Positions 1,426 to 23,625 are shown, counted from the stretch's first letter. The stretch: DNA of 45,699 nt from an uncultured bacterium (GCA_903929735.1 CAIYVW010000037.1:1-45699); one strand, 5' to 3'. Notes: a model not told the origin generated them from the sequence alone. Program-made: numbers and translations.

Positions 1426-1878
1426 CTATTTATTTTTTTCTAAAATCTTTTTAAGTTGATCAATAACTGCTTTTTCCCAGACCTTCATTGAATACCACTT
1501 AATAAGTGGCGTTGCAACTATCCGTAGCCACGCCTTATGAATTGTAACCTTATAAATGTAGTCAATTAAAGTTCCTTCTCTATGTACAGAAAGCAGCAAC
1601 TCCTCATGTCCAGAAGTCCCAAACTGATAACTATCATTGTCTGAAATGAAACCTTTTCCAGGTAGAATTTGAGTTTTCATCTTTACCTTAAAACTTCTTC
1701 CAAATGATTTTACTGTCGCTTCCATCTCTAAATTATTTCTATCCCGTTTATTAATCTGTACCGATTCTGCAACCTTTGGAAAATACTCTGGTAATTTTTC
1801 GAAGTCGGTCATTATTCTAGATACATCTTCAATTGGAGCTTTAATAACCCATTGTTTATGAAGTGTAATTTCTTTCAT
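1426..1878 (-). CDS. SRPBCC (START/polyketide cyclase-like) family protein
   Basis: N-terminal IKAPIEDVSRIMTDFEKLPEYFP pattern, C-terminal amphipathic helix (LKKILE), 150 aa. Confidence 0.75.
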   Translation of the reverse strand: MKEITLHKQWVIKAPIEDVSRIMTDFEKLPEYFPKVAESVQINKRDRNNLEMEATVKSFGRSFKVKMKTQILPGKGFISDNDSYQFGTSGHEELLLSVHREGTLIDYIYKVTIHKAWLRIVATPLIKWYSMKVWEKAVIDQLKKILEKNK

Positions 1879-1912
1879 AAATATATTATAGCAAAATTTT
1901 AATTAAAAACCC

Positions 1913-2080
1913 TTGCTGCCAGATCTGGACCGTGAGTACACTTCTCTCCTTCGACTAAAACTTTTTCGTCAAAAAGTTTTGTCTAGGCACCAGCTCATCC
2001 ATTTTCTCTGGTGAGAAAATATGATTCCGCTGTTCTCGTCCAGGGCGAAAGCAAAGAAGTTTGCTTTCTTCTGGCAGCAA
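1913..2080 (-). repeat. Structured ~170-nt element with terminal inverted repeats, partly duplicating the tRNA-Gln ends
   Basis: TTGCTGCCAGA (1913-1923) / TCTGGCAGCAA (2070-2080) IR; internal hairpins; 1915-1930 matches tRNA 2117-2132 at 15/16. Confidence 0.65.
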
Positions 2081-2083
2081 TTT

Positions 2084-2111
2084 AAAAAACCTTATTTGCA
2101 TAAGGTTTTTT
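2084..2111 (-). terminator. Intrinsic terminator downstream of tRNA-Gln
   Basis: AAAAAACCTTAT-TTGC-ATAAGGTTTTTT perfect IR. Confidence 0.75.
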
Positions 2112-2114
2112 AAA

Positions 2115-2188
2115 TGGCTGCCAGACCTGGACTCGAACCAAGATAACCTCCTCCAGAGGGAGGTGTCCTACCATTAGACGATCTGGCA
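2115..2188 (-). tRNA. tRNA-Gln(CTG)
   Basis: TGCCAGA/TCTGGCA acceptor, CCTCC-CTCTGGA-GGAGG anticodon arm, TTCGAGT T-loop, encoded CCA. Confidence 0.95.
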
Positions 2189-2274
2189 ATATCTAAGAAC
2201 ATCCATATCTTAACACAAAATATTAAAAAATACAGTTTGGAAACATCGAATTTTTAAGGTAGAATAATACCTAT

Positions 2275-3000
2275 ATGAATACAGAAATAAAATATGAGCC
2301 TAGGCACATAACAACAGATGATATTAAAAATGGTTGTATGACCCTTACAGGTGGAGATGGAGAAGAGACAAAGCTTTGCATGATACAAGAAGAATTTCGT
2401 GATGGGATAGATACAGTCAAAGAGATAGGACCATCTGTCACTTTTTATGGATCAGCTAGACTTAAGCCAGATCATCCTGAATATATTAAAGCTTATAATC
2501 TTTCAAATAGAATCGCTAAAGAATTAGGCTATGCGATCATATCAGGCGGAGGAGCAGGAATCATGGAGGCAGCAAATAAGGGAGCATTTGATGCTGGGGT
2601 GTTATCTGTGGGATTAACAATCAGATTACCTCATGAACAAGCAACAAACCCTTATGTAACAAAAGAAGTCCCCTTTCATTTTTTCTTTGCTAGGCAAGTA
2701 TCAATGTCATATATTACAGAAGCTTGTATCTTTTGTGCAGGAGGAACAGGTACTCTATATGAATTCTTTGAAATGCTTACACATTTACAAACTGGTAAAA
2801 TAGGACCTATTCCCGTAATCTTATATGGAACAGAATTCTGGACCCCAATAAAAAAGATATTAGAAGAACAATTTGTAGAAAAATATAAAACTATATCTGC
2901 ATCTGACTTAGAAAGATTCATAGTCACTGATGATGTAGATCAAATTCTTGAAGTCATAAGAATTAGTAAAATAAGAAATGGTGATGATGAATTGAATTAA
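2275..3000 (+). CDS. LOG family (TIGR00730-type) nucleotide phosphoribohydrolase
   Basis: VTFYGSAR, SGGGAGIMEAANKGA and AGGTGTLYE (variant of PGGxGTxxE). Confidence 0.9.
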   Translation: MNTEIKYEPRHITTDDIKNGCMTLTGGDGEETKLCMIQEEFRDGIDTVKEIGPSVTFYGSARLKPDHPEYIKAYNLSNRIAKELGYAIISGGGAGIMEAANKGAFDAGVLSVGLTIRLPHEQATNPYVTKEVPFHFFFARQVSMSYITEACIFCAGGTGTLYEFFEMLTHLQTGKIGPIPVILYGTEFWTPIKKILEEQFVEKYKTISASDLERFIVTDDVDQILEVIRISKIRNGDDELN

Positions 3001-3037
3001 TTACTAATTACTGATTAATAATTCAAATAAGAAATAC

Positions 3038-3068
3038 TAAAATGCGTGGGCAAAGCCCATGCATTTTA
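3038..3068. terminator. Bidirectional terminator between convergent LOG and pyrG
   Basis: TAAAATGCGTGGG-CAAAG-CCCATGCATTTTA hairpin. Confidence 0.65.
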
Positions 3069-3084
3069 TATTAGTAATTAGTAA

Positions 3085-4764
3085 TTATTTTTTCTTCTGA
3101 CATGCTTTTATAAAAGCTGTAAACAGTGGATGAGGAGCAAGTGGTCTAGCTTTGAATTCTGGATGGAATTGAGTACCCAAGAAGAATGGATGCTTACTTT
3201 CTGGTAATTCTGCTATTTCACAAAGTTTACCATCAGGAGAAAGTCCAGAGAATACAAGTCCTGCTTCTTCTAATGCCTCTCTGTATTCATTATTTACTTC
3301 GTAACGGTGTCTATGTCTTTCTGAGATAGATAAAGACTTATAAGCCTTACCTGCTATACTACCTTTCTTTAAAACAGCTTGATAAGCACCCAAGCGCATA
3401 CTGCCTCCCATTTTCTTTTTCTCTATTTTATCTTTTTGATCTTCCATGACATCAATAACTATATCTTTAGCATTAGGATTTACTTCTCTTGTATTTGCAT
3501 CTTTAAGCTTCAAAACATTTCGAGCGTATTCTATTACAAGAAGTTGCATACCATAACACAAACCAAAGTAAGGAATATTATTCTTTCTAGCATATTCAAT
3601 AGTTTTTAGAATCCCTTCTATACCTCTAGACCCGAAACCCCCAGGAACAATAATTCCATCATATTTAGAAAGTTCCTTTAGTTTATTTGGATCTTTTTCA
3701 AAATCCATAGATGAAATCCAAGTAAGAGTTGGCTTACTCCCACAAGCATATCCAGAATATTTTATAGCTTCAATAACTGAAAGATAAGAATCTGAAAGAG
3801 TGAAATCTCCCGTATTAAAATACTTACCAACTATAGCAATCTTCACTTCATTATTTTTCACATGAGTAGAATGAGCAAACTTTTTCCATTTTAAAGATCC
3901 TTCATTTACAGCTGGACCACAAGTCATACCAACAGTATCACAAATCATATCTCCTAGACCTTCTTTCTCAAAATTTATAGGAATATCATAAATACTATCT
4001 ACATCAGGAGCGGAAATAACATGATCGATAGGAACATTACAGAACATAGAAAGCTTTTCTTTTCTCTTTTCATCTAGAGGCATCTTACTACGAGCAATTA
4101 TAATATCTGGTTGAATTCCTGATGCATTTAAAGTCCTAACTGCATGTTGAGTGGGCTTTGTCTTCATCTCTCCAATATTTCCAGGTACTGGCAAATAAGA
4201 AACCATTACAAAGAAAACACTATTTGATTTTCGAAGTTTCATTATACGAGCAGCTTCCAAGAAAAGAATATTCTCATATTCACCAACAGTTCCTCCTATT
4301 TCTATTAATACAACATCAGCATTAGCATTATCACGAGCTTTCTCGATACGACGAATAACTTCAAGAGGTATATGAGGAACTACTTGTACACAAGCTCCAT
4401 TATATTCTAGATTTCTTTCACGCTCTATGACACTTTGATATACACGTCCTGTTGTCATGTAGTTTGCACGAGATAAATCTACACCCAAGAAACGTTCATA
4501 GTTACCCATGTCCTGATCAGTTTCATCTCCATCATCAAGAACAAAAACTTCCCCATGCTCTGTTGGGTTCATAGTACCTGCATCTATATTTATATATGGA
4601 TCAATCTTAATAGCTGTCACACGCTGACCTCTATCAGAAAGAATACGAGCAATAGAAGAAGCGGTAACTCCCTTACCTACACCTGAAATAACACCACCAA
4701 CTACAAAAATATATTTACAGTTAGAAGTTTTATTCTCTAGCTTCTTTTTAGATAATTCTTTCAT
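3085..4764 (-). CDS. pyrG: CTP synthase
   Basis: GGVISGVGKG, KIDPYIN, KTKPTQH, GLCYGMQ, ERHRHRYEVN, QFHPEF. Confidence 0.98.
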   Translation of the reverse strand: MKELSKKKLENKTSNCKYIFVVGGVISGVGKGVTASSIARILSDRGQRVTAIKIDPYINIDAGTMNPTEHGEVFVLDDGDETDQDMGNYERFLGVDLSRANYMTTGRVYQSVIERERNLEYNGACVQVVPHIPLEVIRRIEKARDNANADVVLIEIGGTVGEYENILFLEAARIMKLRKSNSVFFVMVSYLPVPGNIGEMKTKPTQHAVRTLNASGIQPDIIIARSKMPLDEKRKEKLSMFCNVPIDHVISAPDVDSIYDIPINFEKEGLGDMICDTVGMTCGPAVNEGSLKWKKFAHSTHVKNNEVKIAIVGKYFNTGDFTLSDSYLSVIEAIKYSGYACGSKPTLTWISSMDFEKDPNKLKELSKYDGIIVPGGFGSRGIEGILKTIEYARKNNIPYFGLCYGMQLLVIEYARNVLKLKDANTREVNPNAKDIVIDVMEDQKDKIEKKKMGGSMRLGAYQAVLKKGSIAGKAYKSLSISERHRHRYEVNNEYREALEEAGLVFSGLSPDGKLCEIAELPESKHPFFLGTQFHPEFKARPLAPHPLFTAFIKACQKKK

Positions 4765-17204: not shown

Positions 17205-19502
17205 ATGCTTATACTTAAACCATTTCAAGAAACAGCAATATCTCAGCTTAAAGACAAGTTTTTAACTTTATGGAAACTTGGTGATACAAATGTTAATTTA
17301 ACTTTCAAATCTCCAACTGGTTCGGGAAAAACAATAATGATGGCTCAATTCTTGAGAGATATTGTTTCTGACCCACGATTTGCAAGTGCAGATGTCGGTT
17401 TTATTTGGATTACAAACTCTGACTCTCTCGCAATGCAATCAAAAGATAAACTTTTTACGTATTACGGAGGAGCTAGCGAAAATCCACTTATTGATCTGAA
17501 CAATCTACGAGATGGTGTTATTCCTAAGAACGGGGTTTTCTTTATAAACTGGCAGAAACTTGTATCAAAATCAAAAGATAATCGTAAACTTCGCACTGAG
17601 GGTGAGTCAAATACCACCTTTGATATGTATCTAGAAAATACACATATACTTAAACGTGATGTTGTATTGATTATTGATGAAGAGCATATTGCTTCCGATA
17701 CAGTTCTTGCTAGTGATTTAATTAAGAATGTTATTAAGCCAAGAATTATAATTGGTGTTTCAGCTACCCCTCAAACAAAAGGTATTACTGTAGATGTTGA
17801 CCGTAAGGATGTTGTACGAGAGGGTTTAATAAAAGAAAAAATTGTATTTCAAACAGCTGAAGATTTAGAAAATAAAGAATATAAAAATATGGATCAGGAT
17901 GATGTTCTTCTTACTTTAGCTTTTGAGAAAAGAAACGAGCTTGTTGAATACTATAAAAAACTTAAGATTGATATTAACCCACTTGTTTTAATACAACTTC
18001 CAAATGACGATAAAGCAAGAAAAGATACTGCTAATATGACCAAGCAAGATTTGGTTATAAACTTTCTTAAGTCAAAAGGAATACTCACTCACGAAATAGC
18101 CGTCTGGCTTTCAGACGATAAGGTAAATCTTGCAGACGTAGAAGCAAGTAATTCACCAGTATCATTTTTACTTTTCAAACAAGCAGTAGCTACAGGATGG
18201 GATTGTCCACGAGCAAGTATCTTGGTGATGTTCCGTGAGATTAAAAATCCTACATTTGCTATCCAAACATCAGGTCGTATTTTACGTATGCCACTTGGAG
18301 TACATTTTTCAGTACCAGAACTTAATCTCGGTTATTTATACACAAACTATAAACGAAATGAAGTACTTGTTGGTTATGCAAAATCTGCTGACCAAAATAG
18401 ACCAGCAATAAATGGAAGTTACAGGAAAACGGCTGTAGAACCAATTGTTCTTGACTCAGTGTTTATGAGCCGTACTGACTATAACGATTTAGGTGATAGC
18501 TTCCAAGAAACTTTCAAAAAGGTAGCAAATAATTATTTTGGTATTTTAGAAAAAGATACAAAAGCAAATGTTATAAAAAAGTTCAATGATAAAAAACTTT
18601 CTTTAGACAAAAAAGTTACAAATGGCCTTATTGTTGATGTTGAGATTGATGACTATGATAATTTCAAGCAGGAACTTCTTTCTGAGGGAAGTAGTTATGA
18701 GCAAGAAATGTCACAGCATGATTTAGAGAGATTATATAATCTTTTCTGTTTTAATATCATATCTAAACAAATTGATGAGGATAAAAAGTTTGCTCCAGAG
18801 CGTTCTTGGGGTAAATTAAAAACCGCCTTAAATGTGTGGCTTCTTGGTCTCCTTAAAGAACAGCGATTACAAATCTATCACATTATTGTAAATGATTTCT
18901 TAAAAGTGAACAGTGTTTTGAGTAGCGTAATTGGTAAAGCATTATCTACATACAGACCAATTCGTGAGCAAGAAATAAATCATAAATCTCAAAGATCCAA
19001 ACGAACTGAGCAAATTGAAATACCAAGACCATCCCTTTTCTATACTGACCAATATGAAGAAATGAAAGTAAAGAAAAGTGCAATGCAACCATTCTTTATA
19101 GAAAAAGATTATACAGGCAAGAAAAATGAGACAAACTTTATTAAATCATTAGAAGAAAATGATAGTGTTCTCTGGTGGTATAAAAATGGTGATTTGGGTA
19201 GTGAGTTTTTCTCTATTCCATATTATGATCCAACAACCAACAAAGAAAGTTTGTTTTATCCTGACTGGGTTATAAGAAATGAAAAAGGTGTTTACATAAT
19301 AGATACAAAAGGTGGTGATACAGCAAAGGGGGCAAAAGAACGTGCTGAAGCGCTCCAAGCGTGGATAAAAAGCAAGAAAGGTTATTATGGAGGTATCGCT
19401 GTCCAAGATGGCTCAAATGGCTGGAAAATCAACGATAGTGCTAAATACGAGTATACTACTGCTCTTAAGGGATGGAAAGATTTAGAAGATTTTTTGAATT
19501 GA
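17205..19502 (+). CDS. res: Type III R-M restriction subunit Res (SF2 helicase plus PD-(D/E)xK nuclease)
   Basis: SPTGSGKT, DEEH, SATP, GWDCPRA, QTSGRILR, FYPDW...DTKG; starts 4 nt after the mod stop. Confidence 0.92.
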   Translation: MLILKPFQETAISQLKDKFLTLWKLGDTNVNLTFKSPTGSGKTIMMAQFLRDIVSDPRFASADVGFIWITNSDSLAMQSKDKLFTYYGGASENPLIDLNNLRDGVIPKNGVFFINWQKLVSKSKDNRKLRTEGESNTTFDMYLENTHILKRDVVLIIDEEHIASDTVLASDLIKNVIKPRIIIGVSATPQTKGITVDVDRKDVVREGLIKEKIVFQTAEDLENKEYKNMDQDDVLLTLAFEKRNELVEYYKKLKIDINPLVLIQLPNDDKARKDTANMTKQDLVINFLKSKGILTHEIAVWLSDDKVNLADVEASNSPVSFLLFKQAVATGWDCPRASILVMFREIKNPTFAIQTSGRILRMPLGVHFSVPELNLGYLYTNYKRNEVLVGYAKSADQNRPAINGSYRKTAVEPIVLDSVFMSRTDYNDLGDSFQETFKKVANNYFGILEKDTKANVIKKFNDKKLSLDKKVTNGLIVDVEIDDYDNFKQELLSEGSSYEQEMSQHDLERLYNLFCFNIISKQIDEDKKFAPERSWGKLKTALNVWLLGLLKEQRLQIYHIIVNDFLKVNSVLSSVIGKALSTYRPIREQEINHKSQRSKRTEQIEIPRPSLFYTDQYEEMKVKKSAMQPFFIEKDYTGKKNETNFIKSLEENDSVLWWYKNGDLGSEFFSIPYYDPTTNKESLFYPDWVIRNEKGVYIIDTKGGDTAKGAKERAEALQAWIKSKKGYYGGIAVQDGSNGWKINDSAKYEYTTALKGWKDLEDFLN

Positions 19503-19512
19503 TTATAAAGAA

Positions 19513-20538
19513 TTATTTTTTATTCATATATTTTGTTGATATTTCGTTAGTTATCTTTCTTGCATTACCGTGACTTAAAAGTCCTAAGTATGACTGAACT
19601 GTATCTATCTTGCCCTCTTTTAGTTTAATACGTTTCCACATTCTACGTTTAGTTACTGTTCTAATTACACGATGATTTGGAAAATGTACCCATCCAAGAA
19701 AATCAATTCCAGAAACCAGTGTGTTTATAGATACTTTGTTATGGTGAAGTGATAACTTAAGCTGTTCTTTAAGAAAATTAGATATTTGAGGAAGTATGTT
19801 TTTTTCAATCCATTCTTTGTTTTCAGACATAACAATAAAATCGTCTGCGTAACGAATATAGTATTTTATTTTTAGTTTGTGTTTAATAAATTGATCAAAC
19901 TCATTCATATAGATGTTTACAAGCAATTGTGAGGTGAGATTACCAAGAGGTAATCCGACATCTTCTTTGGTTGAATGAAAACTTTTAATTATTTCTGACA
20001 AAAGTGAGGTAACGTCGTCATCTCTAATATATTTTTTAATAATTTCAATAAGGATATTCTGGTCAATGGAAGCAAAAAACTTTCTTATATCACCCTTCAA
20101 AACCCACACTGTCCTTGTATTATTCTTTGATACTTTGTTAGAGAAAGTCCTAAATCTTTGTATCGCCTTATGTGTTCCTTTATTTTTTCTACAAGAATAT
20201 GAGTCAGAAGTAAAAGTCCTATCAAAAAATGGATAGAGTACACGATAGATAGCGTGGTGAAGTAATCTGTCTCGTACTTTTGCTTTATGTATACTTCGTG
20301 GCTTTGGGTCAGAAATGTTGAAGGCGTAATAATCAGAATGCTTATATGTTTTATTTAAGAGTTCATTGTGTAGGTCTATTATATTATCCATTAAGTTTCG
20401 TTCAAAATCTAAAACATCCTTCCTTAATTTTTTGTCTATTGAAAACTCTTTCCAAGCAAATAGAAGATTATTAAGAGAAATGATATGTTTATATGTATGA
20501 ATAAATTGAATACGAATCATATTAAAAATAGTGTTCAA
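19513..20538 (-). CDS. DGR reverse transcriptase (start TTG 20538 or ATG 20520)
   Basis: PKPRSI, RDRLLHHA, SYSCRKNKGTH, GDIRKFF, GLPLGNLTSQ, YIRYADDF, GIDFLG; ~340 aa with no maturase or endonuclease domain; adjacent TR/VR pair. Confidence 0.95.
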   Translation of the reverse strand: MNTIFNMIRIQFIHTYKHIISLNNLLFAWKEFSIDKKLRKDVLDFERNLMDNIIDLHNELLNKTYKHSDYYAFNISDPKPRSIHKAKVRDRLLHHAIYRVLYPFFDRTFTSDSYSCRKNKGTHKAIQRFRTFSNKVSKNNTRTVWVLKGDIRKFFASIDQNILIEIIKKYIRDDDVTSLLSEIIKSFHSTKEDVGLPLGNLTSQLLVNIYMNEFDQFIKHKLKIKYYIRYADDFIVMSENKEWIEKNILPQISNFLKEQLKLSLHHNKVSINTLVSGIDFLGWVHFPNHRVIRTVTKRRMWKRIKLKEGKIDTVQSYLGLLSHGNARKITNEISTKYMNKK

Positions 20539-20901
20539 ACTCCAACACTTTTGCCAGTACTACATAAACTAAAAACTGTGTATCTTCTATGGTATAGCTA
20601 TTATCAGATTTTACCCAAAGAACATCGTTATTCTCTTGGAATAAAAATAGATAGCTTGTTTGTAGAAATAATGGAAGCCATCTCTTTGGCTGGATTTCTT
20701 ACTAAAGGAGAAAAACAACCTTACGTAAGATTATCAATCAGAAAGGTTGATACTTTGAAAATCTTACTGATGATTTTATGGGAGACAAAATCTATTGATA
20801 ATAAAAAGTACATTGCACTTTCTGTCCCCTTAGATGAGGTAGGAAGAATGCTTGGTGGTTGGAATGGACAGCTTACAAAACAAAACTCTCCCATCACATA
20901 G
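20485..20901 (+). CDS. avd: DGR accessory variability determinant Avd (four-helix bundle); start uncertain
   Basis: LPKEHRYSLGIKID...LDEVGRMLGGW motifs; basic protein of ~130 aa lying between RT and TR. Confidence 0.88.
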   Translation: MFICMNKLNTNHIKNSVQTPTLLPVLHKLKTVYLLWYSYYQILPKEHRYSLGIKIDSLFVEIMEAISLAGFLTKGEKQPYVRLSIRKVDTLKILLMILWETKSIDNKKYIALSVPLDEVGRMLGGWNGQLTKQNSPIT

Positions 20902-20910
20902 AAAGGAGAG
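20886..20910 (-). other. Hairpin in the TR 3' spacer, antisense to the avd stop
   Basis: Minus strand CTCTCC...GGAGAG followed by TTTTGTTTT. Confidence 0.5.
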
Positions 20911-20922
20911 AAATGAAAAGAT

Positions 20923-21048
20923 TTGCGAGAACAGCAGACGGGTTATTAGCGTTCCAATCATTCTCAAGCCAATTGTAGTTCCAGTTCCACTTACCATCGT
21001 TCCAGTACAAGTACAGGACGTAACGGTTACCGTTAGAGTTCCGAAGAA
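20923..21048 (-). repeat. DGR template repeat (TR), 126 bp
   Basis: Ungapped match to 21407-21532; rich in AAC/AAT codons; all 19 mismatches fall at minus-strand adenines. Confidence 0.97.
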
Positions 21049-21051
21049 ACA

Positions 21052-21269
21052 TATAGAGTATCATCTATTCCACCACCTCTTGAATACTCTCAAGGTTGTA
21101 TATTACTCGTGATAATAATCACTCAATACTCTATACCAAGTATCTTCATTTTTTTGAAGTTTCTGCATACATCACTCTACTTGAAACCTTAATCTCAAGT
21201 ATTCTGAATGTATGGATACTGGTTTCGGTAGCGGAAAATCGTAATCGTCCGCATATTCACCTACTACCG
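21052..21269 (-). ncRNA. Structured 5' region of the putative DGR template RNA
   Basis: Nested helices, e.g. 21052-61/21126-35 (10 bp), 21166-72/21208-14, 21178-84/21195-201, 21226-31/21264-69; extended -10 TGTTAAACT just upstream. Confidence 0.6.
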
Positions 21270-21294
21270 TATTTAGTTTAACACAAAAAAATAA

Positions 21295-21316
21295 CCCCTG
21301 TATAAAAATACAGGGG
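21295..21316 (-). terminator. Perfect hairpin after the DGR target (terminator and/or homing cruciform)
   Basis: CCCCTGTAT-TTTT-ATACAGGGG followed by TTATTTTTT on the minus strand. Confidence 0.65.
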
Positions 21317-21371
21317 CGGAGGATAAAGTACCTCCAATTTTTTTTCGCGAAATGCACAAAGGACAAAGGGT

Positions 21372-22031
21372 CTAAGAAACCAAAGTTTCAGAAACCAGAG
21401 TGCTACTTGCGAGAACAGCAGACGGGCCATCAGCGAACCAATCACGCCCAAGCCAATAGTAGTTCCAGTCCCACTCACCACCGTCCCAGCACAAGTACAG
21501 GACGTAACGGCGACCGCCAGAGTCCCGAAGAACAGTTCCATCAAAGAAAATAAAAGTTGTATTCCCGTTTGTTTTTTCTTTCCATTTTTCAGGAATGAGG
21601 ATTTGGTTTTCCCAAAGTGTTTTGAAAATACCAGCATCCAAACGAATACGATTTGTTTTTTCTTTGAGACGTTTGAGTTTGTCTTCACCTTTAATGATTT
21701 TCTCTCCTTTTTCCAAGGTTGAGTCAAACATAACCTCAGTTAGGTCAATTTCGGTGAGAGCAATTGCTCTTTCGTCTTGTTCTTCAATAGACCATCCGTC
21801 ACCAATAAAGGTTTTGGGATCAAACAGGATAGAGCGGTCAATGCTGATTACCCTTGGGCTATCAACTATAACTTTTCCACCATTTTTAAGGAATGCAGTA
21901 AATTGTTTACCTGCTTCCGTAGGGTCATCTACAATCTTTTGTAAAATTGTGTGTTCCAAGACATCCCAATTAACATTGGTTGCAAGGATTTGGATAACCG
22001 TGTGAGACTGACCAATAGATGGCTTACTCAT
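21372..22031 (-). CDS. DGR target protein with C-terminal variable region (219 aa from ATG 22031; ORF track start 22061)
   Basis: VR encodes LRDSGGRRYVLYLCWDGGEWDWNYYWLGRDWFADGPSAVLA; SD AAGGAGGT 5 nt before ATG 22031. Confidence 0.92.
   Translation of the reverse strand: MSKPSIGQSHTVIQILATNVNWDVLEHTILQKIVDDPTEAGKQFTAFLKNGGKVIVDSPRVISIDRSILFDPKTFIGDGWSIEEQDERAIALTEIDLTEVMFDSTLEKGEKIIKGEDKLKRLKEKTNRIRLDAGIFKTLWENQILIPEKWKEKTNGNTTFIFFDGTVLRDSGGRRYVLYLCWDGGEWDWNYYWLGRDWFADGPSAVLASSTLVSETLVS
21407..21532 (-). repeat. DGR variable repeat (VR)
   Basis: 107/126 identical to TR; minus-strand changes A>G x14, A>T x3, A>C x2. Confidence 0.97.
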
Positions 22032-22075
22032 AATTACCTCCTTTTTTAATAAGAACAACATCGTTCTTGGTTTAT

Positions 22076-22105
22076 ATTATAGCATAATATAACACATTAT
22101 GTCAA
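22076..22105 (-). promoter_or_regulatory. Consensus sigma70 promoter of the DGR target
   Basis: TTGACA (22105-22100), 18-nt spacer containing TGn, TATAAT (22081-22076). Confidence 0.75.
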
Positions 22106-22206
22106 TATGACTAGTTTTTCTGATTTTTCCTTTAGATTTGGTATATAAATATAACCGTTATGTTCCCTTACCCTAGTTCCCACTTCGTCCACTAAATCGC
22201 GCAAAT

Positions 22207-22230
22207 AAAAAGAGGCTTATGCCTCTTTTT
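22207..22230 (+). terminator. Intrinsic terminator, probably the displaced original tRNA-Asp terminator
   Basis: AAAAAGAGGC-TTAT-GCCTCTTTTT directly after the right GCGCA core. Confidence 0.75.
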
Positions 22231-22311
22231 GCTTATTTGACTTAAAGCTAGATTAATAGTAATTTAAGTTTAAATAAACAGTTCTAGTATTAACTTTAAA
22301 TTCTTTGAAAA

Positions 22312-23625
22312 ATGGAAAAGAAACAGTTATTTCTAATAGACACAAATGTCTTTCTTCACGACCACGGATCTGTCCGAAGGTTTGGGAAAAATGACATAGG
22401 AATTCCAATTCAAGTTATAATTGAATTGGATAACTTCAAAAAAGGAAAGGAGCCAATTAATTATTGTGCCAGAGATGTCTTACGTGAGATAGAATCTTTA
22501 CCTAGTAAGCAAATTTATGATGGAGGTGCTTCTCTCGGGGAGAATCTTGGTAAACTTAGAATTATTGTTGGACATCCTTACCACAGCGAAGTTAAGAAAA
22601 TTTTTCCAGAACAAACTATGGATCATTTGATATTAAACGCTGCATACTGCTTGAATCATTCCAAAAAAGTTAAGGAATCAAACACTGAAGTGATCTTAGT
22701 ATCAAAAGATGTGAATCTACGATTAAAAGCAGGGGCTCTTGGATTAATGGCGGAAGATTATCAAAATGATAAAGTTCTTGATGTACCATCCTTATTCGGA
22801 GAAATAAGAAAATTCGAAATAGAGGAAGAGGAAATTACAGAGCTATACACGAAAAAACATATTGAATTCAAAGCCAGAGAAGCATTCTTTCAGAATGAAT
22901 TTATGATATTAAATGCTTCCAAAAGAACAGCCTTATCTTGCTTTAAGAATGATGTTTTTACTTTAATCAAAGATGACCTACGCCCTTTTGGAATTAAAGC
23001 TAGAAATTCCGAACAGTCATTTGCCCTTCATGCACTACTTGATCCAAAGATTTCATTAGTAACAATGACTGGTAAAGCTGGAACAGGAAAAACTCTTTTA
23101 GCTATTGCTGCAGGTTTGCATTTAATGAAAAATAACCAATACGAGCAAATATACTTTACGAGAGAAGCTATGGGGCTTTCAAATAAAGATATTGGTTTTC
23201 TTCCTGGGGGTATAAATGATAAATTATCTCCCTATATGCAAGGACTGCAAGATAATATATCTTTACTTAAAAGTATCAAGGGTAACAAAAAGATCATTGA
23301 AGATTATGAAAAAAGTGGAGAGTTAAAGCTTGAAGCTTTAACTTTCATAAGGGGTAGAAGTATCCCTAATACTTTCTTTATTATCGATGAAGCACAAAAC
23401 CTGACACATCAAGAAGTTAAAACTATTCTTACCAGAGCAGGAGTAGGAACTAAGATAATATTAATCGGAGATGTCATGCAGATAGATACTCCTTTTATTG
23501 ATTTATCATCTAACGGATTGAGTCACGTCATCTCGTCTATGAGAGGTCAGAGTGTTTACTCACAAATAAACTTAGTAAAAGGCGAACGTTCTGAATTAGC
23601 AGAACTTGCTGCTAACTTACTTTAA
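22312..23625 (+). CDS. PhoH family protein with N-terminal PIN domain (PhoH2)
   Basis: LIDTNVFLHD, VSKDVNLRLKA, GKAGTGKT, IRGRS, IDEAQN, GDVMQID, ERSELA. Confidence 0.93.
   Translation: MEKKQLFLIDTNVFLHDHGSVRRFGKNDIGIPIQVIIELDNFKKGKEPINYCARDVLREIESLPSKQIYDGGASLGENLGKLRIIVGHPYHSEVKKIFPEQTMDHLILNAAYCLNHSKKVKESNTEVILVSKDVNLRLKAGALGLMAEDYQNDKVLDVPSLFGEIRKFEIEEEEITELYTKKHIEFKAREAFFQNEFMILNASKRTALSCFKNDVFTLIKDDLRPFGIKARNSEQSFALHALLDPKISLVTMTGKAGTGKTLLAIAAGLHLMKNNQYEQIYFTREAMGLSNKDIGFLPGGINDKLSPYMQGLQDNISLLKSIKGNKKIIEDYEKSGELKLEALTFIRGRSIPNTFFIIDEAQNLTHQEVKTILTRAGVGTKIILIGDVMQIDTPFIDLSSNGLSHVISSMRGQSVYSQINLVKGERSELAELAANLL

Follow-up and report, generated by a model that had tools for sequence, protein, structure and literature searches.

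Directly upstream of the template repeat (TR) of a diversity-generating retroelement (DGR), in a 45,699-nt stretch of DNA from an uncultured bacterium (GCA_903929735.1, CAIYVW010000037.1:1-45699; the whole stretch is called the window below), we find a leader of about 215 nt (21269-21052, minus strand) that comparison with its relatives solidly supports as a conserved, structured non-coding RNA. A strand in its second domain, P, forms a long-range pairing with nine nucleotides, F, that begin 3 nt after the TR, and this pairing is new. To our knowledge, DGRs are the most powerful natural protein-diversifying systems known, and we know of a single phage in which their mechanism has been worked out; there, an RNA downstream of the TR docks the enzyme and is the site of priming. 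By analogy with that phage, BPP-1, we propose that the leader does the work of the BPP-1 spacer (Sp) RNA, the whole block having shifted from the 3' to the 5' side of the TR, a reading to which we assign a probability of roughly 0.55. An initial annotation, made from the window alone, had described three stacked RNA domains upstream of the TR with a promoter of their own and had taken them for a dedicated 5' domain serving either the binding of the reverse transcriptase (RT) and Avd or regulation. This interpretation as a whole is partly supported; the P:F pairing, its competition with a local hairpin (CUUCA/UGAAG), and a terminator-like hairpin belonging to the TR itself go beyond it.

The DGR is complete and lies on the minus strand in the order target gene with its variable repeat (VR), leader, TR, avd (accessory variability determinant, reversed), and RT. 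We compared it with relatives anchored on the RT, taking the best 80 of 575 confirmed stretches. With blastn, 56 of these 80 loci show the leader immediately before the TR, at 65-87% identity; more loci gave a match to the leader than to the TR. Since a MAFFT alignment of the whole VR-to-TR spacer was too gappy for use, the sequences were re-anchored on a near-universal motif, ATTCRANGGRYRGTG, about 37 nt before the TR, and structure was counted in a MAFFT alignment blind to structure of 65 sequences, that is, the window and 64 loci. Six loci were left out, five because the anchor motif was unmatched (L006, L038, L042, L048, and L080) and one because it is cut by a contig end (L077).

Taken together with the predicted promoter box (232 nt, 21283-21052), the window's leader folds at -62.6 kcal/mol, while 200 dinucleotide shuffles average -43.2 (sd 4.0; z = -4.81) and none of the 200 is as low. 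The RNAalifold consensus of the 65 sequences comprises 40 pairs, with compensatory changes at 36. All helices named in the initial annotation are present where it had placed them, and together they make a 67-pair structure in which 87.2% of cells are paired, compared with 35-46% in slid controls, whose pairing partners are displaced by 1-3 columns. In the same structure, 737 cells are changed on both sides (142-212 when slid) and the covariation score is 0.491 (0.10-0.13 when slid); none of 500 shuffles reaches the observed values. The three-domain RNA thus stands, as do most of its helices, which covary: support is good for GCGGA/UCCGC, CAUACAU/AUGUAUG, the UACUUGA arm, the closing helix of domain 3, and both inner hairpins of that domain. 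G-U pairs are frequent (for example, UG in 57/65 and GU in 57/65 sequences at two pairs), so that the leader fits an RNA of the TR-sense strand and not a DNA element.

The inner stem of domain 1 is paired in 88% of cells, with covariation at 7/7 pairs, and its loop reads UACG in 32 of the 65 sequences. The long arm of domain 2 consists of the 7-bp CAUACAU/AUGUAUG helix and a 10-bp stem with one conserved non-canonical pair, capped by a YACG tetraloop (UACG or CACG in 34/65). Domain 3 is closed by the 11-bp helix UAUAGAGUAUU/GAUACUCUAUA (21135-21125 with 21062-21052), of which 10/11 pairs covary and which does end 3 nt before the TR (TR start 21048), as first annotated. When this domain was realigned alone (50 sequences), 94.5% of cells were paired, compared with 34-48% in slid controls, with 298 compensatory cells, and none of 500 shuffles did as well. 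Inside the closing helix, a short hairpin of 5 bp is followed by an A-rich conserved strand; the 12 nt at 21097-21108 show the highest sequence conservation in the leader, and their last bases may form three pairs. Several loci carry inserts of 20-70 nt, some of them self-complementary, at hairpin tips, with the underlying helices intact, much like the expansion segments of structured RNAs. The insertion sites are the loop of the last domain-3 hairpin (L009, L062, L037, L010, and L034), the A-rich loop of domain 2 (L008, L020, and L039), and the short domain-3 hairpin (L050, L053, L063, and L069).

We then turned to the pairing that links the leader to the far side of the TR. Of its two strands, P sits within the loop that the domain-2 helix closes, and F is outside that loop. 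The 9-bp P:F helix is therefore a pseudoknot, beyond the reach of ordinary folding; in the minimum-energy fold computed for the full predicted transcript, the TR is paired with domain 1, a result we regard as spurious. Across 61 loci, duplexes between a locus's own P and F average -5.56 kcal/mol, compared with -3.72 (sd 0.19) for permuted partners, and none of 5000 permutations is as good. In the fixed, unfitted register given by the anchor, the paired share of cells is 84.9%, while seven other registers reach 48-57%, and the 64 compensatory cells compare with 17.4 (sd 3.5) under permuted partners (0/2000). Complementarity is kept even where the sequences diverge, as in AAAUAAAGU/ACUUUAUUU (L010, a perfect match), AAACGAAGA/UCUUCGUU (L064 and L072), CUGUUGC/GCAACGG (L068), AAAUGAGGA/UCCUUAUUU, and AAAUACA/UGUAUUU. 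P also pairs better with the flank of the TR than with that of the VR in 51 of the 61 loci (mean -5.56 versus -2.35 kcal/mol), so that only the TR transcript would be copied. The local CUUCA/UGAAG hairpin shares bases with P:F, and the two are mutually exclusive. P:F is the better supported of them, and in L010 the hairpin is absent and P:F perfect. The hairpin is either a transient alternative or spurious.

The flanks of leader and TR predict the ends of the RNA. The box TGTTAAACT, named earlier as a promoter element, matches an extended -10 pattern, TGnTAnnnT, that is conserved in position: it occurs 15-60 nt upstream of helix H1b in 39/65 loci, in 33 of them at 20-23 nt, compared with 6% of background windows, and most loci that lack it have TAnnnT at the same place. 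Promoters of the Candidate Phyla Radiation (CPR), to which the host belongs, are poorly characterised, and we regard the box as an extended -10 promoter element for the TR RNA whose activity is predicted from sequence. Behind the TR, the consensus runs CGCAA-CUC-UCUUCAUUU, followed by a hairpin and then by UUUUGUUUU. The hairpin is paired in 86.9% of cells (36-72% when slid), with 41 compensatory cells (6-21 when slid). This element, with its 6-7-bp stem and conserved UUUUGUUUU, was not listed by the terminator scan, which allows loops of 3-8 nt, against 12 nt here. The last codons of avd lie antisense to the 3' half of the hairpin and to the U-tract, and the avd stop codon (20899-20901) falls in the loop, so that 20876-20901 is under double constraint. 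As a separate observation, this segment encodes the end of Avd (...KQNSPIT*) opposite the RNA hairpin and U-tract, and the conserved AAAACAAAA may serve protein and RNA alike. Taken together, promoter box, leader, TR, and terminator-like hairpin predict a self-contained TR RNA of about 390 nt.

How does this arrangement compare with the one known mechanism? In the BPP-1 record, avd (bbp7, 3021-3407) abuts the TR (2887-3020), in agreement with the initial annotation, which had the BPP-1 RNA 5' of the TR down as the 3' coding sequence of avd; a non-coding spacer separates the TR from brt. According to the accessible part of a recent preprint (bioRxiv 10.1101/2023.10.23.563531), the BPP-1 RNA consists of the upstream avd strand, the TR, an Avd-binding stem-loop (11 bp, UNCG loop), and a primer strand with A56 as the priming base, paired over about 10 positions to the TR 3' end. 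Next come a stop strand, which forms 11 bp with the upstream avd strand and sets the end point of the cDNA, a short stem-loop, and two adenosines; last are a single-stranded Thumb Ring of about 13 nt (Sp 82-94) and an RT-binding stem-loop with two interior loops (same source). The order in the window is domain 1, long arm, P, 7 nt of closing helix, 5' strand of the 11-bp helix, 5-bp hairpin, 12-nt strand, interior-loop hairpin, 3' strand of the 11-bp helix, TR, F, and terminator-like hairpin. Both systems thus have a structured non-coding RNA attached in cis to the TR. Both have a duplex between scaffold and template 3' end (about 10 pairs in BPP-1, 9 in the window) and one of 11 bp at the 5' edge of the TR. 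In both, these are followed by a short stem-loop, a single strand (12-13 nt in BPP-1, 12 nt in the window), and an interior-loop stem-loop. On the 5' side of the primer strand, BPP-1 has an 11-bp stem with a UNCG loop; on the 5' side of P, the window has a YACG-capped stem of about 10 bp. What differs is the side. The scaffold lies 3' of the TR in BPP-1 and 5' in the window, where a structured RNA of the BPP-1 type does not follow the TR: only F, one hairpin, and the U-tract come after it, ahead of antisense avd and overlapping it. The RNA 5' of the TR is the end of avd in BPP-1, whereas in the window it is non-coding, with its own promoter box, and avd lies on the other strand.

On this analogy, a plausible mechanism can be drawn up for an upstream scaffold. 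The UACG-capped long arm of domain 2 would be the counterpart of the Avd-binding stem-loop, and P:F would be the template:primer duplex, with P as the equivalent of Sp 47-56. The adenosine at the 3' end of P (21143) would prime the cDNA, with the C three bases past the TR/VR homology as the first position copied, and the closing helix of domain 3 would act as the stop duplex, halting synthesis at the TR 5' edge. The short stem-loop, the Thumb Ring, and the RT-binding stem-loop of BPP-1 would have their equivalents, respectively, in the short hairpin, the 12-nt single strand, and the interior-loop hairpin, the 12-nt strand possibly standing in for both the A-minor adenosines and the Thumb Ring of BPP-1. 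Modelled on this scheme, the candidate RT- or Avd-binding stem-loops in the leader are the two capped by YACG and the one with an interior loop. A scaffold moved as a block to the 5' side would also explain how the layout can place a reversed avd directly after the TR. It is tempting to speculate further that most DGRs of the Patescibacteria use such a circularly permuted RNA, with the docking scaffold for RT and Avd and the priming site upstream, under a promoter and terminator of its own. In these RNAs, an upstream adenosine would prime through the pseudoknot, and the CUUCA/UGAAG hairpin would be a decoy that mimics the TR flank and holds the primer strand until the transcript is complete, gating mutagenesis. 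We hold this wider proposal tentatively, as somewhat short of an even bet.

Several observations weigh against an upstream scaffold of this kind. Three helices of the leader have little or no covariation support, and on these the earlier list of helices is weakly supported: CGGUAG/CUACCG, the outer stem of domain 1, is weak (75% paired, with recurring C-A mismatches), CUUCA/UGAAG is paired in 76% of cells and missing in some relatives (e.g., L010, L021, and L073), and CCAGUA/UACUUGG is uninformative because it is almost invariant. The match to BPP-1 is imperfect as well. Between P and the stop strand there are 7 nt, belonging to the domain-2 closing helix, where BPP-1 has 2 nt; neither domain 1 nor that closing helix has a BPP-1 counterpart; and P:F is set off from the TR/VR homology by 3 nt, whereas in BPP-1 the duplex falls within the TR. 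A covariance model built from domain 3 (R1) found nothing significant in the BPP-1 cassette (1700-4700, filters off), where the best match (E = 0.36) falls on the opposite strand and the score of the Sp region is 5.2 bits (E = 4.3). The analogy accordingly draws on element order and size, with no homology detected. For 10 of the 61 loci, the TR flank offers P no better pairing than the VR flank does, and the base at the proposed priming position is an A facing a U in only 42/61, the terminal pair being a standard one in 53/61. Behind the TR, slides of -1 and -2 still leave the hairpin 71-72% paired, and RNAalifold gave no consensus pairs on the MAFFT alignment of this region because the stems are out of register, so that the stated structure was counted instead.

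Published assignments point elsewhere too. In its accessible part, the BPP-1 preprint reports putative Avd-binding stem-loops downstream of the TR in 207/278 DGRs from several phyla, CPR included, and upstream:downstream stop duplexes in DGRs, again including CPR, an assignment that differs from ours (bioRxiv 10.1101/2023.10.23.563531). That survey looked no further than 40 nt on the upstream and 100 nt on the downstream side of the TR (same source), and the post-TR hairpin may be what a survey so close to the TR picks up in the CPR clade. As to transcription, the one informative contig, from a soil metatranscriptome (X1, 578 nt, about 96% identity), spans 20850-21425, from inside the VR to 27 nt past the U-tract, but it can define neither the ends nor the strand of a transcript and may stem from DNA carry-over. 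Of the RNA runs, available as contigs only, 24 contain 5-13% of the sampled words; runs X5, X7, and X10 give partial cover at 85-95% identity and probably come from relatives.

The most serious alternative accepts the leader as a real structured 5' domain of the TR transcript and makes it regulatory or stabilising (folding control, RNase protection, sensing of a ligand or protein, or a CUUCA/UGAAG switch), with docking and priming elsewhere, for instance on the post-TR hairpin together with avd-antisense RNA. The downstream stem-loops reported in other DGRs would suit this alternative, as would the fact that a covarying hairpin does follow the TR in the window; yet the conserved terminator-like U-tract behind that hairpin leaves little downstream RNA, and any RNA past the U-tract would be antisense to a protein-coding gene. 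The mutual exclusion of local hairpin and P:F is switch-like, and R1 shows no similarity to the BPP-1 Sp, but the covarying P:F and the 11-bp helix at the TR 5' edge are exactly the two duplexes that the BPP-1 mechanism needs, and the most conserved bases of the leader are single-stranded, as expected for protein contacts. On balance, we consider a purely regulatory domain less likely than a permuted scaffold. Much less probable still is that the leader is an independent small RNA or a cis-element of the target gene, such as a structure in its 3' UTR (untranslated region), and only genetically linked to the DGR. The X1 contig, which comes from an RNA library and runs unbroken from the VR through the leader, fits read-through from the target gene. 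Against this, two terminator-like hairpins stand between that gene and the leader, the -10 box keeps a fixed distance, the gap between the last helix and the TR is always about 3 nt, covariation links P to the TR 3' flank, and all 5 independent R1 matches that were fetched lie beside avd, and beside the RT too in the four whose stretch reaches it.

Finally, a DNA-level signal (recombination, replication, or a protein-binding site) or a small protein is hardly credible as the source of the conservation: stop-free runs of at least 60 codons do occur in 32/65 leaders, but no reading frame is open in more than 6/65 loci, shuffled leaders give similar runs (median 51 codons, against 58), indel lengths do not come in threes (26/20/19 modulo 3), and compensatory changes with abundant G-U on the TR-sense strand fit RNA. 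A coding leader was rejected on these grounds. The claim of a dedicated non-coding element is borne out, the leader being linked to the TR in every relative examined.

The suggestion of a candidate new RNA motif also gains from these data, covariation having been found from the regions upstream of homologous TRs. An Rfam 15 scan of 18500-23000 (E up to 10) gave seven weak matches, none of them inside 21052-21283. One of the seven, to Spot_42 (21286-21420; 31 bits, against a cut-off of 80), was discarded and is due to the terminator hairpins of the target gene. In the literature searched, we found no description of a structured RNA 5' of the TR in CPR DGRs, although supplements and studies beyond that search might hold such assignments. 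As far as their accessible parts go, neither a 2022 review (PMC8867640) nor the BPP-1 preprint (bioRxiv 10.1101/2023.10.23.563531) describes an upstream structured RNA in CPR. The layout 'B3' makes up 90% of one CPR DGR set (Wu et al. 2018, PMC5758913), and the CPR/Patescibacteria clade has been named 'DGR clade 2' (Roux et al. 2021, PMC8144416). These two papers concern the same host phylum as the window and, in the portions available, treat gene order and targets and make no mention of a structured RNA upstream of the TR. The candidate motifs RT-1 to RT-19, found near RT genes and proposed as possible parts of retrons or DGRs (Weinberg et al. 2017, PMC5737381, accessible part), resemble the leader in being conserved structured RNAs beside bacterial RT genes; the absence of any Rfam 15 match in the leader sets it apart from them as far as Rfam holds these motifs. 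Judged by the analogy with BPP-1, what would be new is a DGR template RNA with its scaffold upstream, within a known kind of DGR RNA.

R1 has one match in the genome of the window and matches 24 of 150 other genomes sampled evenly from the phylum (16%), in 19 of 130 genera and with up to three copies per genome. The leader would add a widespread RNA family with good support to a phylum in which few non-coding RNAs have been described and which has a very large part of the known DGRs, 972 of 6901 in one analysis set (Roux et al., PMC8144416, accessible part). If the scaffold does lie upstream, the cis-priming mechanism would be modular and tolerate permutation, and surveys confined to some 40 nt before and 100 nt after the TR would misassign its elements in the CPR clade. 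An upstream scaffold would also provide a compact, self-contained template RNA with defined ends for reconstitution and engineering.

Table 1. Features of the DGR and its predicted TR RNA in the window, in minus-strand order.
Feature	Position	Strand	Description
DGR target gene	21372..22031	-	219 aa from the ATG behind AAAGGAGG; from the open reading frame (ORF) list
Variable repeat (VR), end of target gene	21407..21532	-	126-nt repeat, 85% identity to TR
Two terminator-like hairpins ending the target gene	21294..21335	-	Terminator scan; U-tract extends into the promoter region
Predicted extended -10 box TGTTAAACT (TGnTAnnnT)	21275..21283	-	Pattern conserved across loci; predicted start near 21268-21270, at the foot of domain 1
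Domain 1	21226..21269	-	Outer stem CGGUA/UACCG, conserved internal loop UAGGUGAAUAU, inner stem GCGGA/UCCGC with UACG tetraloop
Domain 2	21136..21222	-	Closing helix CCAGUAU/UAC(U)UGG; long arm; local hairpin CUUCA/UGAAG (alternative to P:F)
Strand P AAAUGAAGA	21143..21151	-	Directly 5' of the 3' strand of the domain-2 closing helix; pairs with F; proposed primer strand
Domain 3	21052..21135	-	11-bp closing helix (proposed stop duplex), short hairpin, conserved single strand, interior-loop hairpin, then GGUGGUGG
Conserved 12-nt single strand	21097..21108	-	Consensus GAAUACGAUACA, window GAGUAAUAUACA; column counts
Template repeat (TR)	20923..21048	-	126 nt, 85% identity to VR
Strand F UUUUCAUUU	20911..20919	-	Begins 3 nt past the end of the TR/VR homology (CGCAA); pairs with P
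Terminator-like hairpin CUCUCC/GGGAGAG + UUUUGUUUUG	20876..20910 (hairpin 20910-20886)	-	Covarying stem, conserved U-tract
avd (accessory variability determinant), between TR and RT	20485..20901	+	PF22296 bAvd, E = 1.2e-8, 35.9 bits (below the 40-bit cut-off)
DGR reverse transcriptase	19513..20520	-	RVT_1, E = 8.8e-24; start taken at the in-frame ATG 20520

The genome that holds the window (763 kb in 52 contigs, 100% complete by marker genes) is that of an ultra-small bacterium of the Patescibacteria/CPR. Its cassette is a DGR by the usual signs, an RT gene beside a TR/VR pair that differs at adenines of the TR, all 19 of the 19 mismatches being at such positions. The relatives of the RT among the best 80 of 575 stretches (61-78% identity) all come from metagenome-assembled genomes of Patescibacteria/CPR. 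Within the 80 loci, avd lies on the opposite strand between TR and RT in 75, the remaining 5 being without upstream DNA, and an A-biased TR/VR pair is present in 66 of the 72 upstream regions examined, with a VR-to-TR gap of 240-435 nt. The product of the target gene matches no Pfam family and shows no recognisable domain in a Pfam scan. A known phage element was ruled out: the cassette has no blastn match in 50,697 phage records, and the 176 phage records that the RT finds by tblastn are all below 60% identity. Nor did we recognise phage genes adjoining the DGR, which is flanked by a PIN-PhoH fusion gene (22312-23625, plus strand) and a type III restriction/helicase-like gene (ResIII, Helicase_C; 17205-19502, plus strand).

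Three smaller features of the cassette are worth recording. The coding regions of avd and RT start back to back on opposite strands with an overlap of 36 nt (20485-20520), and 64 of 76 sequences (75 loci and the window) have a run of 7-14 G (C in the avd sense) at the 5' end of avd, shortly before the RT start; 11 of the 76, the window included, have none. Behind the VR (21337-21406, minus strand), CTTNG-type repeats recur every 7-11 nt; the window has four, and 66 sequences average 3.1 per 70 nt, compared with 0.23 in a control window in the RT gene. The promoter of the target gene (22076-22105, minus strand) is a perfect consensus, TTGACA-18-TATAAT with TG (12/12 matches), in contrast to the TR RNA, for which only the extended -10 box is seen.

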